A stretch of DNA of 64,000 nt, from IMG/VR virus record IMGVR_UViG_3300036803_000035, positions 793-64,792 of that record, one strand, 5' to 3'. Shown in pieces: positions 31,571 to 37,319 of the stretch. The position numbers and the translations under genes were made by a program. Numbering within the stretch: position 1 is the stretch's first letter; each line of letters opens with the position of its first letter. The notes beneath the pieces are model-generated. The model searched no databases. It saw only the letters and a program-made list of their open reading frames with translations, and was not told the DNA's origin. Source of the stretch: a virus (taxonomy: Duplodnaviria; Caudoviricetes).

Positions 31571-32260
31571 ATGGCAATGCGGTGCATCACCACTCTGCTG
31601 TCGCCGGCGGACAGCTATGACCTGGTCACGCTCGACGTGGTCAAGGCCGAGCTCCAGCTGACCGACGATGCAAGTGATCCCTGGCTGAAAACCGCGATCA
31701 CTCAGGTGTCCGCCGCGATGGCGCGCTTTTGCAATCGATCGAACGCGATCGCGAGCGAGGCATCCTTCGCCGTCGAGACGGTGCAAGACCTGTTCTACCC
31801 CGAGCGCGACGCCTATCCGTTCCAGGTGCCCGGCGGCGCCTCCGTGTTGCAGCTGTCGCACTGGCCGGTCACGAACATCCTCGAAGTCAACATCACCGAT
31901 CCGGCGGGCGCCACGCCGCAGATTTTGGTCGCGGACACCGATTACGTGCTCGACGCCTCGGTTGGGCAGCTGATCAGGCTTGACGCCTTCATGGCGTACC
32001 CGACGCAATGGGTGCCGATCCGCACCGCCGTCAAATACTCGGGCGGCTTTGACCCGATCCCCGATGATGTGGTCGATGCCGCGCTGCGCTGGGTCACGAT
32101 GCGGTGGTCCGATCGTGGCCGCGACCCGAACCTGAAATCGCTCGAACAGCCGATGGTCGGCACCAAGACCTATTGGGTCGGGGCGCAGCCGATGACCGAG
32201 GGCGTTCCGACCGAGATCGCGAGCCTCCTGATCAAGTATCGCGTGCCGGTCAGCGCATGA
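31571..32260 (+). CDS. Head-tail connector (gp6/gp15-like adaptor)
   Basis: LVTLDVVKAEL...D..L...I...S.....CNR; VKYSGGF..IPDDV..AAL; position in the operon. Confidence 0.8.
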   Translation: MAMRCITTLLSPADSYDLVTLDVVKAELQLTDDASDPWLKTAITQVSAAMARFCNRSNAIASEASFAVETVQDLFYPERDAYPFQVPGGASVLQLSHWPVTNILEVNITDPAGATPQILVADTDYVLDASVGQLIRLDAFMAYPTQWVPIRTAVKYSGGFDPIPDDVVDAALRWVTMRWSDRGRDPNLKSLEQPMVGTKTYWVGAQPMTEGVPTEIASLLIKYRVPVSA

Positions 32261-32757
32261 TCGAATTCACGATCGACGTCAACACCAACCACATCATCGC
32301 GCAATTCGAACAGCTGCCGGCGGCGTTGCAAGTCCGCCTGCGCGCGATCATCCAAACGCAGACCGAGCGGCTTCTCGCGATGGTGCAAGGCGGCGAGCCG
32401 GTCCGCACCGGCGCGCTGCGATCGCACACGACCAGCTTCATCGACGCCGGCGAGGACTTCGTTCGCGGCCGCGTGCGAATTCTCAACGATGCCTCGGGCA
32501 AGTTCCATGCGCGCGCCGGCGCCCTCGAATATGGCGCACATCGCGCGACGCGAGTGTCGGCGCATCAGATGATGCTCGGCCATGCGTGGGGCGCAGCCAT
32601 CGAGCCGCGCGCGGTCATGGTCGAGGCCTACACGCGGCAGCTGAATTTGCCGGAACTGCGCTTCCTGCGCGGACCCTTCGAACAGATACGCGCTGCGGTG
32701 CTCGCCGAAGTGCAGCGCGCCGTCGACGCCGAGATCAGCCGGGCGCACAGCGCCTAG
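32257..32757 (+). CDS. HK97 gp10-like neck / tail completion protein
   Basis: EPVRTGALRS, ALEYG, FLRGPFE. Confidence 0.7.
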   Translation: MIEFTIDVNTNHIIAQFEQLPAALQVRLRAIIQTQTERLLAMVQGGEPVRTGALRSHTTSFIDAGEDFVRGRVRILNDASGKFHARAGALEYGAHRATRVSAHQMMLGHAWGAAIEPRAVMVEAYTRQLNLPELRFLRGPFEQIRAAVLAEVQRAVDAEISRAHSA

Positions 32758-32805: not shown

Positions 32806-33462
32806 ATGAATCGAAATCTGATTCTCGACACGCTGCTGGCAAAGCTGGCGGTGCCGCCCCTCTCGTTTCAATTCGCGGCCGACATTCAGGCCAATCAGGT
32901 CTCGCTCAACAGCGTGAGCCTCGCCGATCTGGCGAACCTGTTGCCGGGGATGCCATTGCGCGGGCTCGGGCTCGGTCCCGATTGCGTCCTCGCCACGGTT
33001 GATCCGCCCACGATGTCGGTGCCGGCGATCAGCACCGGAATTCAGGTCACGATCCAACAGGGCGTCGCGACGATCGGGCGCCGATTGAAGATGTGGACCG
33101 AAGTGCCGGTGCAGCCGGCTCTGTTCCTGGTCGAAGCGAATGAAGAATACCCGCCGCGCCCGTCGAGCGCGCCGGCGCGGTCAAACCTCGATGCCTTCGT
33201 GTGGGTCTACTACCGCACCACCGGCCCCGAAGCGGTGCCGGCGAAGGTGTTGAACGGGCTCCTCGACGGGATCGAGGCAGCGCTGACGCCGCCGCGCAAT
33301 TCGCCGACCGGCGTTTGGCAAAATCTTGGCCTCGGCACCGTCATTCACGCGCGCATCGAAGGCCATGTCCTCAAAGACCCGGGGCATCTCGACGGTCAAG
33401 CGATCGCGCGAGTGCCGCTGGTCATCCAGGTCGCGCAAACCGGCACGACCAAACCGCTCTAA
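32806..33462 (+). CDS. Tail terminator-like protein with an inserted beta module
   Basis: N-terminal RNLILDTLLAKL and C-terminal QPALFL...LNGLLDGIEAAL...QNLG.G.V.HARIEG...DPGHLDGQA; insert at about aa 22-85. Confidence 0.6.
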   Translation: MNRNLILDTLLAKLAVPPLSFQFAADIQANQVSLNSVSLADLANLLPGMPLRGLGLGPDCVLATVDPPTMSVPAISTGIQVTIQQGVATIGRRLKMWTEVPVQPALFLVEANEEYPPRPSSAPARSNLDAFVWVYYRTTGPEAVPAKVLNGLLDGIEAALTPPRNSPTGVWQNLGLGTVIHARIEGHVLKDPGHLDGQAIARVPLVIQVAQTGTTKPL

Positions 33463-33477
33463 CCTCGGAGAACCGCC

Positions 33478-33861
33478 ATGAGTTTCACGCACACCCTCGG
33501 CGTCACGTACAAAACCGGCGAAGGCACGGTCATCTCGGTCAATCAGAACTATGTGGCCGACGGTCAGATGGACATCGACGACATCGTGCCGCCGTCCACG
33601 ACCAACAAGGAATACGATCTGCCGATCACGCTCGCCAACGTGAAGTCGCTGGTTATTTCGTCCGATCAGGCGCTCACGATCAAGACCAATTCGAGCGTCA
33701 CGCCGTCGGACACCATCACCGTCAAGGCCGGCATTCCGATCACCTGGAATACCGACAACATCAATTCGATCCCGTTCGCGACCAACGTCGCCAAGATGTT
33801 CATCACGAACGGCGGATCGAACAGCGCCAATCTCAAGGTGCGCGTCGCCACGACGATCTAA
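33478..33861 (+). CDS. Hypothetical virion protein
   Basis: GGAGA RBS; Thr/Asn-rich beta protein. Confidence 0.65.
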   Translation: MSFTHTLGVTYKTGEGTVISVNQNYVADGQMDIDDIVPPSTTNKEYDLPITLANVKSLVISSDQALTIKTNSSVTPSDTITVKAGIPITWNTDNINSIPFATNVAKMFITNGGSNSANLKVRVATTI

Positions 33862-33888
33862 CGCCGCTCGCTCGGCGAGATCGCAGCA

Positions 33889-33919
33889 GCCGCCGGGGAA
33901 ACTCGGCGGCTTTCTTTTT
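33889..33919 (+). terminator. Intrinsic terminator-like hairpin
   Basis: GCCGCCGGG-GAAA-CTCGGCGGC-TTTCTTTTT. Confidence 0.7.
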
Positions 33920-33940
33920 GCCTAAAGACGGAGACGCCCA

Positions 33941-34444
33941 ATGGGCACGCCTGTCACCTATCAAATTCTGCAATCCGGCCAGCTACAGGTCGGGGTGCAA
34001 TTCATCGGCGCGAACAGCGTCGGCCCGCAATTGACGATGACTCTGCCGCGCGTGCTGATCACGCCGGCGGCATCGCTCAACATGATCCACGATGAGTGGG
34101 GCCAGCTGACGCTCGACGGCGAGGTCCTGGTCGACATCACGACCGGATCATTCGGCACGATCGTCCATCCCGACAGCGGCGCCACGTCGCCTCTGCCCGA
34201 TGAGTATTACATCGGCAAGGGCATCGTGAGCATTCAGCAGGCCACCGACACGTCGTACATCGATGTCGGCAACGTGCCGCAATTCGAATTCACGCCGGAA
34301 GTCAAAAAGCTGGATCACTACAGCAGCCGGCTCGGCATCAAGACCAAGGATAAAACCGTCGTGCAGGAGAAGGCGGCGAAACTCAAGATCGTCCTCGACG
34401 AGTGGACCGCTCGCAATCTGCAAATGATGCTGATGGGAGTCTGA
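33941..34444 (+). CDS. Tail tube (major tail) protein, apparently circularly permuted
   Basis: Contains YYIGKGIVS...GNVPQFEFTPEVKKLDHYSSR...KDK...DEWTARNL..LMG and F.GAN.VGP...DEWGQL...GEVL...GSFGT; lies just before the chaperone and tape measure genes. Confidence 0.75.
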   Translation: MGTPVTYQILQSGQLQVGVQFIGANSVGPQLTMTLPRVLITPAASLNMIHDEWGQLTLDGEVLVDITTGSFGTIVHPDSGATSPLPDEYYIGKGIVSIQQATDTSYIDVGNVPQFEFTPEVKKLDHYSSRLGIKTKDKTVVQEKAAKLKIVLDEWTARNLQMMLMGV

Positions 34445-34462: not shown

Positions 34463-34489
34463 GCCGCCCGCCGCGAGGCGGCTTTTTTT
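34463..34489 (+). terminator. Intrinsic terminator-like hairpin after the tail tube gene
   Basis: GCCGCC-CGCCGCGA-GGCGGC-TTTTTTT. Confidence 0.65.
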
Positions 34490-34502: not shown

Positions 34503-34967
34503 ATGCCGGTTGGCTTACTCGACATCGCGCCGCGAGACGAACGGCGCGAGACGCTCAAGGTCGGAGATCAGGAGATCGAAATTCGCGGGCTCACCGTTCC
34601 CGAGATGGGGCGGCTGTGCAAGCGGTTCCCCGATCTTCGCATCTCGCTGTTCAATGACAGCGCGCCCGAGGATGTCAAGGCAGCCGGGATGCTCGAAGCC
34701 TGGCCGGCGATCGTCGCGCTCGGCGTCGTCAAACAGCCCGGCGAAACGGCGACCGATGCAGAGCGGGAAGCGGCGATCAATCGGATGCCGCAGGAGATGA
34801 TGCTGGCGATCGGCACCGCGATCATGCGCGTGACCAACCCCGAGAAGCCGAAGGATGGTGAACGCCCTTTGGCGCCGGCGGCGGAGGCAGCGCTGGCGGC
34901 CGCCCTCGAAGAAGCACGAGCGGCCGGAGCGGCGAGCACGAGCTCTGCGCCGCCCTCGAACTCCTAA
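34503..34967 (+). CDS. Tail assembly chaperone (G)
   Basis: Lies between the tube and tape measure genes; IEIRGLTVPEMGRL..RFP. Confidence 0.75.
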   Translation: MPVGLLDIAPRDERRETLKVGDQEIEIRGLTVPEMGRLCKRFPDLRISLFNDSAPEDVKAAGMLEAWPAIVALGVVKQPGETATDAEREAAINRMPQEMMLAIGTAIMRVTNPEKPKDGERPLAPAAEAALAAALEEARAAGAASTSSAPPSNS

Positions 34968-35152
34968 TCGCCTGCGGGCACCGGCGCGAGGACCTGTGGC
35001 ACTACACGCCGCGGGAAATCGTCGCCTGGGCCACGCTCGCGAATGAACGCCGGCGGCGGGAGCTCGCCGAAAATCTGACCGTCGCGGTGCTCGGCGCGCG
35101 CGGCGAAAAGAGCGAAGTCGAAACCCGCCTGCGCGAGTGGTCCGATGGCTGA
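34865..35152 (+). other. Programmed -1 frameshift site C CCT TTG (34865-34871) and the GT extension frame
   Basis: X XXY YYZ heptamer in the correct phase of G. The -1 frame is open to TGA 35150-35152 and encodes LIACGH...W.YTPREI..W..LA..RRRRELA, with no start codon of its own. Confidence 0.8.
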
Positions 35153-37319
35153 CAATCTGACGATCGCAATCGGCGCAGATAGCACCAAGCTGCGCAGCGA
35201 TCTCGCCGTCGTGCAGGCGCAAATGCGCCAGTTCGGCACCGAGCTCCGGCGCGCGGCACAGGACTCGCTCAAGACCGGCGACACGTCGGGGCTGGCCTCG
35301 ATCGCGAAGAATTTCGAGGCGGCGCGGGTCAAGGCGGGCGAGCTCACCGCCGCGCTGCGCACCCAAGCGACCGAGCACGCCGGTTTCCGCGGCGCCCTTC
35401 TGAGGTCCGCAGAGGCACTCCGCGGCGCTCGCGAACACATGCACGCCTTCGGGGAGTCGGCTCGCAATGTCGGCGAGCGCGTGTTCCCGCACTTCCGCGA
35501 AATCCTCGCCCTCAGCGTCGGCGTCGCCATCGTCGAATTTGTGCGCAAGCTGAAAGAGGCGAACGCCGAAATCCGCGAAACCGAGAACCTGGCGAAAGCG
35601 CTCGGCGTCACGAATGAGGCGATGGAAGGCCTCGAATTGGTCGGGGCGCAAGCTGGGCTGTCGATGGGCACGTTCGGTCGCGCGCTGGCGATCTCGGCAC
35701 GCCATATCGGCGAGGTCAGAGAGGAGACGATCACCGCCACCGGGCAGATGCCGGGCGCTGTCTCGGAATTGCGCGGCAACATGGCGCACATCGCCGACGT
35801 CGGCACGCGCCTCGCCGGCGGGATGAATCAGGCCAATCAGAGCATTCTGGCCGCCACCACGATCATGCGCGGCGGCGTGAAGCCGGCGATCGATTTCAAA
35901 CACACCTTCGACGATCTGATCAATGACACGCAGAAATTCCCGGCGACGCTCGAAGGCAATTTGAAACTCCAAGTCGCCATCGCCGATCGCATCACCCACA
36001 TGAAGGATAAGACCGTCCAGGCGGCATTGGCGCAAAAGCAATACGGGCGCAATTGGTTCGAAGTCATCGCCGCGCTGGAAAATCTCGGTCCGAAATTGAA
36101 GGCGGCCACCGAGGACATCGAGCACAGCCATCTCGCGATCACCGACACCGATCGCAAGCGCGCGCGAGCGTTCAATTCCGAAACCGCCGTGATGGGCGTC
36201 TACGTCAACAACCTGAAAAAGATCGTCGCCGCCGCGCTCGGCCAGGGACTCATCCCGTTTTTCAAGGGCATGGAGGCGGTGCTCAAGGGCAACGCCGACT
36301 CGATCCGCGCCTGGGCCGAGCAAGCCGGCAAATACATCGGCGACACCGCGCAAGATTTCCTCGCGCTGTTCTCATTCGGGAAGGTGCAATCGAACGCGAC
36401 CGGCTTGACGAAAACGCTGGTCAGCCTCGGGGAGACTGCCGCACGCACGTTCCGCATTTTTCGGGGCGCGCTCGATTACATGCGAATCGCCCTCGACGCG
36501 ATCGCCGCCGGGTTCAATCAGGCGTTCGGCACGCATATCAACGCCGAATTGGTCGGCGCTGTGTTGCTGTTCGGCAAACTGAGCGGCCTGTTCTCGCTGG
36601 CGGCGACCGGCGTTGGATTGCTGACCGACGCCTTTCGCGGTTTTGTCATCGTGTCGCGGTTCTTCGTGACGACGCCGCTCGGCATGATCCTGTTCGCGAT
36701 CGCGACCGTTGCGCTCGTGATCTACAAAAATTGGGACACGCTCAAGCCGCTGTTTGTCGCGACCTGGAACTTGATGAAAGCCTTCGGCGGCTGGGTCAGC
36801 GATACCTTCACCGGCATTTGGAGCAAATCGGTCGGCGCGATCGAGGACCTGTTCAACGGCCTGTGGAATTGGATCAAGGCGGTTTTCGACAAGGTCATCA
36901 ACGCGGCGAAGGAAGCGGCGAAGTGGGTCGCGAAGGCGTTCGGCGCCAGCAGCGGCGGCAGCACCGATAACGCGCCCGAGACGGCCGGCGGTCACGCGCG
37001 CGGCGGCTATATCCGCGGCCCCGGCAGCGGATCGAGCGACAGCATCCCGGCCTACCTGTCGAATGGCGAGTATGTCGTGCGCGCCGCATCGGTCGCGCGC
37101 ATCGGCGTGCCGGCTCTGAACCGCATCAATTCGGGATCGGTGCCGAAATTCGCCGAAGGCGGCCTCGTCGGCGGCGGCGGGACGCCCCTGCATCTGCATC
37201 TCGGCTCGCGCAGCTATGCCGCCAGCGCCTCGCGCGGTGTCACCGACAGCCTGATCCACGAAGCGCGCACCCGGCACATGGTCACGACCGGGCGCAAACC
37301 CAGCTGGGCCGGCACATGA
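35145..37319 (+). CDS. Tape measure protein (724 aa)
   Basis: DNLTIAIGADSTKL N-terminus, long Ala/helical body, W-spaced repeats, C-terminal ARGGYIRGPG.G.SDSIPAYLSNGEYV. Confidence 0.9.
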   Translation: MADNLTIAIGADSTKLRSDLAVVQAQMRQFGTELRRAAQDSLKTGDTSGLASIAKNFEAARVKAGELTAALRTQATEHAGFRGALLRSAEALRGAREHMHAFGESARNVGERVFPHFREILALSVGVAIVEFVRKLKEANAEIRETENLAKALGVTNEAMEGLELVGAQAGLSMGTFGRALAISARHIGEVREETITATGQMPGAVSELRGNMAHIADVGTRLAGGMNQANQSILAATTIMRGGVKPAIDFKHTFDDLINDTQKFPATLEGNLKLQVAIADRITHMKDKTVQAALAQKQYGRNWFEVIAALENLGPKLKAATEDIEHSHLAITDTDRKRARAFNSETAVMGVYVNNLKKIVAAALGQGLIPFFKGMEAVLKGNADSIRAWAEQAGKYIGDTAQDFLALFSFGKVQSNATGLTKTLVSLGETAARTFRIFRGALDYMRIALDAIAAGFNQAFGTHINAELVGAVLLFGKLSGLFSLAATGVGLLTDAFRGFVIVSRFFVTTPLGMILFAIATVALVIYKNWDTLKPLFVATWNLMKAFGGWVSDTFTGIWSKSVGAIEDLFNGLWNWIKAVFDKVINAAKEAAKWVAKAFGASSGGSTDNAPETAGGHARGGYIRGPGSGSSDSIPAYLSNGEYVVRAASVARIGVPALNRINSGSVPKFAEGGLVGGGGTPLHLHLGSRSYAASASRGVTDSLIHEARTRHMVTTGRKPSWAGT

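Follow-up and report, generated by a model that had tools for sequence, protein, structure and literature searches.

One conserved chain topology is assumed to be common to tail tube proteins and to their relatives in tailocins, in type VI secretion systems and in contractile injection systems. For P0001, the protein described here, the only solved relative that is detectable by sequence is the tube protein of phages YSD1 and Chi (YSD1_22, PDB entry 6XGR; Chi, PDB entry 8VHX). This protein has the canonical order of elements and 381 residues in total, with a domain 2 inserted after helix H1 and an Ig-like domain at the C-terminus. The YSD1 tube domain consists of a β-sandwich, a long β-hairpin and helix H1, the latter being wedged between neighbouring subunits (PMC7385642). 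The YSD1 subunits need a free N-terminal loop to associate into a tube, and premature ring formation is restrained by the β-hairpin (PMC7385642, PMC8718954). In T5 pb6 and in phiCbK, two tube domains are fused in a single chain that forms trimeric rings and a working tube (PMC8718954). Permutation is not mentioned in a review from 2022 on major tail proteins, and in the full-text literature we found no published description of a permuted tail tube protein, only of genome permutation and of a suggested permutation of the T7 nozzle protein.

P0001 is encoded on a GC-rich (65%) phage contig from a soil metagenome, of which a stretch of 64 kb (the window) was analysed. With only 167 residues, it lacks both domain 2 and the Ig-like domain of the YSD1 and Chi proteins and has no room for either. 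The ends of its chain fall exactly at the site of YSD1 domain 2. The segment equivalent to the N-terminal loop, on which tube assembly in YSD1 depends, lies inside the P0001 chain as a closed linker. Nearer in size are the compact canonical relatives of 160–190 residues, namely P0176, P0184, P0059 and P0072 (a hypothetical protein of Rhodopseudomonas palustris). These contain the same two halves, here called A (N-terminal in the canonical order) and B (C-terminal), with 40–66% identity to P0001 in half A and 39–49% in half B, and the tail modules that encode them are laid out as in the window, the tape measure gene and the genes downstream being related. Their order is A–B, whereas that of P0001 is B–A: their free termini correspond to the linker of P0001 and their post-helix loop to its termini. 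We consider P0001 to be a natural circular permutant and the sole major tail tube protein of its phage, with a probability of about 0.88.

Family and genomic setting of the tube gene

The features to which we refer below are the following, with positions counted in the window.

32806–33462, + strand: neck/tail gene, 218 residues (PHROG 8150), with homologues in 19 of 58 permuted-tube loci
33888–33921, + strand: terminator-like hairpin with T run, 3′ of the preceding gene of 127 residues (consensus match only)
33930–33933, + strand: ribosome-binding site GGAG, 7 nt 5′ of the ATG (read directly from the sequence)
33941–34444, + strand: gene of P0001, the putative circularly permuted major tail tube protein, 167 residues plus stop
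33941–34174, + strand: half B, residues 1–78, equivalent to the C-terminal half of canonical tube proteins
34160–34204, + strand: junction linker, residues 74–88, IVHPDSGATSPLPDE, which ties the old C-terminus to the old N-terminus
34184–34441, + strand: half A, residues 82–167, equivalent to the canonical N-terminal half with strand β1 (YYIGKG), the long β-hairpin and helix H1
34409–34429, + strand: helix H1, residues 157–163, in the AlphaFold2 secondary structure; the last structural element, with the chain ending four residues on
34463–34489, + strand: terminator-like hairpin (34463–34482) with T7 run, 3′ of the tube gene
34503–34967, + strand: tail assembly chaperone-like gene, 154 residues, with weak matches to PHROG 344 (E = 0.005) and Pfam Pre_tape_measure (E = 0.068)
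35145–37319, + strand: tape measure protein, 724 residues (PHROG 58, 3547 and other tape measure families)

P0001 matches PHROG 807 ('major tail protein with Ig-like domain') in two stretches with an E-value of 6.3e-27, residues 87–166 aligning with positions 5–89 of the 256 in the profile, and phrog_885 with an E-value of 9e-5. In phmmer the YSD1_22/Chi tube protein (6XGR/8VHX) is found with an E-value of 1.4e-5; here residues 88–166 align with chain positions 8–91, and there is a weak alignment of residues 12–58 with positions 210–256. The segments 87–166 and 88–166 thus match N-terminal positions of the family, which makes the C-terminal half of P0001 the family's N-terminal block. Judged by these profile and sequence matches, P0001 is a siphophage major tail tube protein of the Chi/YSD1-related family (PHROG 807). 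It belongs to a compact branch of that family and not to the Chi-like phages proper, and its swapped chain order makes it a topological variant rather than a non-member by descent. The local copy of Pfam, which lacks the PF27730 model, gives no match for P0001, and PF27730 is the precomputed label on all of its homologues. No record in INPHARED covers 80% or more of P0001, and the permuted form is present in no cultured phage there.

The gene is located as a single copy between neck/terminator genes and the chaperone-like and tape measure genes, with head–tail adaptor and neck genes upstream and the chaperone-like gene 5′ of the tape measure gene. The same layout of the tail module is found in loci L003, L008, L012, L017 and L084. 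A sequence-only reading of this DNA had ascribed to the gene its own ribosome-binding site and flanking terminator-like hairpins. The ribosome-binding site stands. Both hairpins are present as well, the upstream one (33888–33911) having a stem of ten pairs, eight of them GC, followed by TTCTTTTT, but they are only suggestive: a scan of the region finds four terminator-like sites where 2.2 are expected.

That P0001 is a non-tube paralogue or a decaying relic, with the real tube protein encoded elsewhere, we regard as very improbable. Neither tblastn nor a six-frame HMM search finds a second tube-like ORF in the 64 kb window, the gene occupies the place between neck genes and chaperone and tape measure genes described above, and the N-terminus is without a signal peptide-like sequence. 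The permuted tube gene is under strong purifying selection. In a set of 46 distinct permuted genes, dN/dS values lie between 0.01 and 0.15 for the closest pairs, at dS values of 0.4–0.7, the median over 687 pairs of permuted genes is 0.22, and 23 columns are invariant in an alignment of 54 permuted proteins. A model of self-association that passes its controls (see below) also argues against a paralogue or relic. The earlier impression that the gene is intact agrees with its uniqueness as a tube gene in the window, its customary place in the tail module and the purifying selection on it.

Two neighbours deserve separate mention. Residues 530–680 of the tape measure protein match PHROG 971 ('endolysin') with an E-value of 3e-21 in addition to tape measure families, and this segment could be either cell-wall-acting or a mislabelled tape measure block. 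The ORF of 127 residues (33478–33861) directly upstream of the tube gene has a homologue in none of the 58 related permuted-tube loci; in the Atlas it falls in phage-only hypothetical clusters, with a cupin-like β-sandwich model. We considered it as a remnant of a duplicated tube half and rejected this, as it is similar to neither half and belongs to a separate phage-only family.

Order of the two halves

When P0001 is compared with P0059 (176 residues) using BLASTP, two segments are obtained in reversed order. Residues 82–166 align with residues 6–90 of P0059 (66% identity, E = 6e-44), and residues 5–73 align with residues 100–168 (39% identity, E = 4e-17). An HMM of the canonical order behaves likewise, matching the window ORF with its positions 97–168 first and 3–87 after. 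If P0059 is written twice in succession, P0001 aligns with it in one colinear local alignment with a single gap of five residues and a score of 434, compared with 316 for a single copy of P0059 and 30 ± 5 for shuffled queries. P0176 is among the canonical proteins closest to the B–A clade; when it is doubled, P0001 aligns with it over 162 residues without a gap, and the SP motif of the old N-terminus is in register. FGT and YY are separated by 15 residues, and this stretch equals exactly the C-terminal tail of P0176, a methionine and the N-terminal tail of P0176. Within this linker, Pro77, Asp78 and Ser83 are shared by 90% or more of the 54 permuted proteins, Pro84 in all of them, and His76 is the majority residue.

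A homologue search of 5.8 billion proteins gave about 120 relatives of similar size. For the classification of chain order, P0001 was split into half A (82–167) and half B (1–78) and both were located in each of 269 fetched homologues, the best 150 of 850 representative hits being inspected. The order is A–B in 182 of these proteins and B–A in 74, and in 13 a single half is seen; none of the 269 has an A–B–A or B–A–B form. Each half occupies one distinct site per homologue. In full-length B–A proteins the break falls at positions 90–110 of the canonical profile and, in all but two, at 90–100.

The sequence-only reading had proposed the swap from motif order and from the order of blocks that it ascribed to related alphaproteobacterial siphophage tube proteins, and it is borne out in these respects. 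The motifs occur in the translation of the ORF (33941–34444, 167 residues, + strand) as quoted; the canonical order that it gave, with the SP..Y.IGKG...LMG block as the N-terminal half, is that of the majority class above; homologues in that order align with P0001 as two blocks in reverse and, once doubled, in one piece. The break indeed lies in the loop after the helix that ends in LMG, and the HPDSGAT stretch, which had been named as a short linker, is part of the conserved 15-residue junction HPD...SP. That reading did not include the large clade of permuted proteins, the alignment without gaps to a doubled sister or the second type of permutation in the family.

Could the swapped order be an artefact of assembly or ORF calling, or an apparent swap caused by halves that are homologous to each other? 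Nothing speaks for the former beyond the prior expectation for metagenomic contigs, and halves A and B never match each other in any homologue. Among the best 80 loci in IMG/VR, 58 independent viral contigs have the B–A order and 21 the A–B order, and tandem tube copies occur in none of the 80; on the protein side the B–A form is represented by the 74 clusters. A metagenome-assembled genome of Vineibacter sp. contains a B–A ORF of 170 residues between homologues of the 218-residue gene of the window and of the chaperone-like gene, the former directly 5′ of the permuted tube gene. Two other soil metagenomes, which belong to different studies, yielded independently assembled contigs that match positions 33827–34351 and 34129–34345 without a mismatch; they cover parts of the stretch and together bridge the start codon and the junction, a point on which the earlier reading had left the possibility of mis-assembly to be excluded. 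A third run holds the whole stretch and may be the source sample. An artefact of either kind is therefore extremely improbable.

The permuted form defines a large clade of uncultured phages. B–A loci have in common with the window the adaptor and neck genes, the C-terminal part of the tape measure gene and the gene after it; A–B loci share only the last two. The adaptor and neck genes (31571–32757 in the window) are common to permuted-tube phages; in the comparison of the window with loci L059–L080, the sampled canonical-tube phages have only the C-terminal part of the tape measure and the next gene in common with it. The tube form may travel with the neck module.

Predicted fold and self-association

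An AlphaFold2 model of P0001 was built on the alignment of the 54 permuted proteins (pLDDT 89.4, pTM 0.80). It contains strands 15–23, 32–42, 56–62, 73–75, 94–99, 107–111, 114–130 and 133–152 and helix 157–163. The model of canonical P0059 (pLDDT 86.6) contains strands 18–23, 38–52 and 59–76, helix 81–88 and strands 91–96, 99–103, 110–118, 125–137, 151–157 and 168–172. In these predicted structures, the elements of P0001 are those of P0059 in cyclically shifted order.

For the P0059 model, a Foldseek search gives 33 matches at E ≤ 0.001, of which the tubes of YSD1, JBD30 and Chi come first (TMq 0.77), followed by those of Bxb1, HFTV1, 80alpha, the GTA tube and others. For the permuted P0001 model no match is obtained at E ≤ 0.001. 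Since an order-dependent aligner is expected to fail on a permutant, we rejected a new fold as the explanation for this blank. Using VIA-align, residues 9–78 of the P0001 model superpose on residues 208–276 of YSD1 (6xgr_A) with an r.m.s.d. of 1.4 Å over 69 residues. A wide VIA search with the P0001 model gives Z-scores of at most 4.6, and this low-scoring list otherwise consists mostly of tube and Hcp proteins. P0001 is thus predicted to adopt the same tube domain of a β-sandwich plus a helix.

A model with three copies of P0001 scores 0.60, compared with 0.00 for the best control; a mark of 0.60 is reached by 20 of 30 proteins that were solved as pairs of one chain and by one of 23 that were solved as single chains. 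The runs agree in at least 94% of the contacts and the partner pLDDT is at least 82. In the modelled interface, residues 1–14 and helix 153–165 of one copy pack against residues 68–94 of the next, which comprise the old last strand, the linker and β1. Residues 1–14 form the new N-terminal segment of half B, which is placed after helix H1 in canonical proteins. The position of H1 at the subunit contact is as in YSD1 (PMC7385642). The model supports self-association of P0001. Similar tube complexes have been solved, so the passing score may reflect likeness to known structures.

Breakpoints, origin and meaning of the permutation

Domain insertions in canonical relatives of P0001 are confined to two places on the profile. 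At the first, positions 21–25, six proteins carry inserts of 51–83 residues; at the second, positions 90–97, 24 canonical relatives carry inserts of 26–230 residues, and this is where domain 2 of YSD1 is located (PMC8718954). C-terminal extensions are also common in canonical relatives. The breakpoint of P0001 coincides with the second site, and a break after H1 is tolerated because this loop accepts large domain insertions in relatives.

The first site is used by permutants of a second type. P0228 and P0139 start at the strand that follows loop 1 and carry β1 (YFIGKG or YTIGKG) at the C-terminus, the break lying after β1 at about profile position 25. Both are colinear with doubled canonical relatives. 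As in P0001, which belongs to the same family, the old termini are joined and the new ones lie in an insertion-tolerant loop, but only β1 has moved. The P0228 cluster has ten members, and the type-2 form is present on three IMG/VR contigs (L081, L082 and L083), one of which contains a complete gene.

L082, 5001–5531: type-2 tube ORF, complete, with a ribosome-binding site and a downstream hairpin, then a chaperone-like ORF and a tape measure-like gene

P0139 is a singleton on a 2.5 kb contig, and a scan of viral contigs gave no match to it. In the unconstrained IQ-TREE phylogenies P0228 and P0139 are placed, with starred support, among canonical proteins that differ between the two, which suggests that the type-2 permutation arose twice and independently of the P0001 clade. 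One further candidate, L088 from Methylocystis parvus, was rejected: this relative, encoded at L088:5755–6429 in a prophage on the chromosome of Methylocystis parvus M6-2022, has the canonical order, with an insert of about 55 residues in loop 1. This prophage of a cultured methanotroph is a possible tractable system for the tube family.

The canonical order is taken as ancestral because all distant tube proteins are colinear with the canonical model. In a FastTree phylogeny of 197 re-ordered proteins, 66 of the 67 B–A rows fall in one clade (96); the 67th is on a long branch and its nearest rows are also B–A. In unconstrained IQ-TREE phylogenies the B–A label needs three changes, with the canonical proteins P0176, P0184, P0220 and P0221 inside the B–A group (SH-aLRT 95). 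This, together with the recurrence of permutation in the family as type-2 forms, is what would be expected if the B–A form had arisen more than once or if the nearby canonical proteins were re-permuted revertants. A tree constrained to B–A monophyly is nevertheless likelier by 13 units of lnL, monophyly is not rejected in the AU test (p = 0.705; 52 rows, LG+G4), and one breakpoint and the conserved HPD...SP linker are common to all B–A proteins. We hold several origins, or reversion, to be unlikely. One origin is the simplest, if unproven, reading of these trees, and the permuted lineage probably descends from a single event.

For the route to the permutation, we propose that a canonical gene resembling that of P0176 was duplicated in frame, head to tail, and that the outer half of each copy was then lost by trimming at both ends. 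The chain of P0001 starts just after the position of canonical helix H1, runs through an ordinary C-terminal half (residues 1–78), continues through the conserved linker into β1, the long β-hairpin and H1, and stops four residues later. Through H1 and its new N-terminal strand P0001 would contact its neighbour as tube proteins do in hexameric rings, with the rings stacked around the tape measure protein, and it would be functionally equivalent to its canonical relatives. The event would have taken place in an ancestor of a soil siphophage lineage, likely with hosts among the Alphaproteobacteria, with purifying selection ever since.

The gapless alignment with doubled P0176 favours such an in-frame tandem duplication with subsequent trimming. 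A different route, in which the gene was split at the post-helix loop and its pieces were reordered and fused again, would make the permutation no less real, and its break would likewise lie in a loop that tolerates interruption. It also fits the lack of duplication intermediates: forms such as A–B–A–B or B–A–B and tandem genes are found neither among the 269 proteins nor in the best 80 loci nor in the length class of 294–2000 residues. Split half-genes and shorter relatives (30–90 residues) were not found either, and the single-half proteins all look like fragments or have divergent remainders. As evidence against the existence of fused or split forms, these searches by length class are weak. 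The junction, made up of C-terminal tail, methionine and N-terminal tail, is predicted by read-through of a tandem gene and is not required by fission and fusion. In addition, chains with two tube domains fused in frame are known to assemble, as in T5 pb6 and phiCbK (PMC8718954), and these are the kind of intermediate that the duplication route requires, although they keep both full domains and have no detectable close sequence relation to P0001, in whose family the doubled form was not found. We therefore judge fission and re-fusion improbable, and duplication with trimming the most likely origin.

As a trace of permutation by duplication, the alignment without gaps to a doubled sister gene is unusually clean. 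P0001 also exposes a blind spot in annotation: its canonical homologue is recognized easily, while neither the local Pfam copy nor Foldseek succeeds on the permuted form; permuted tube genes are therefore likely to be filed as hypothetical. The two breakpoints mark loops where the fold can open or be decorated, which may be of use as display sites on tails and tailocins.

In P0001 the free ends would be H1 and the strand that follows it in the canonical order, and the old N-terminal segment would be internal. The protein is thus a natural test of the roles given to the free N-terminal arm and to H1. It is tempting, if still speculative, to regard the tube family as a natural series of circular permutants that arose in at least three independent events, one after H1 and two after β1, at exactly the two loops that accept insertions, with the YSD1-type arm locked inside and H1 and the next strand free at the interface. 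If this is true, the switch against early polymerization of monomers has moved to different elements, and the family provides a natural experiment on the control of tube assembly. A permutant that is maintained by selection as the only tube gene of its phage would mean that the helical assembly of tubes can accommodate a rewired chain.
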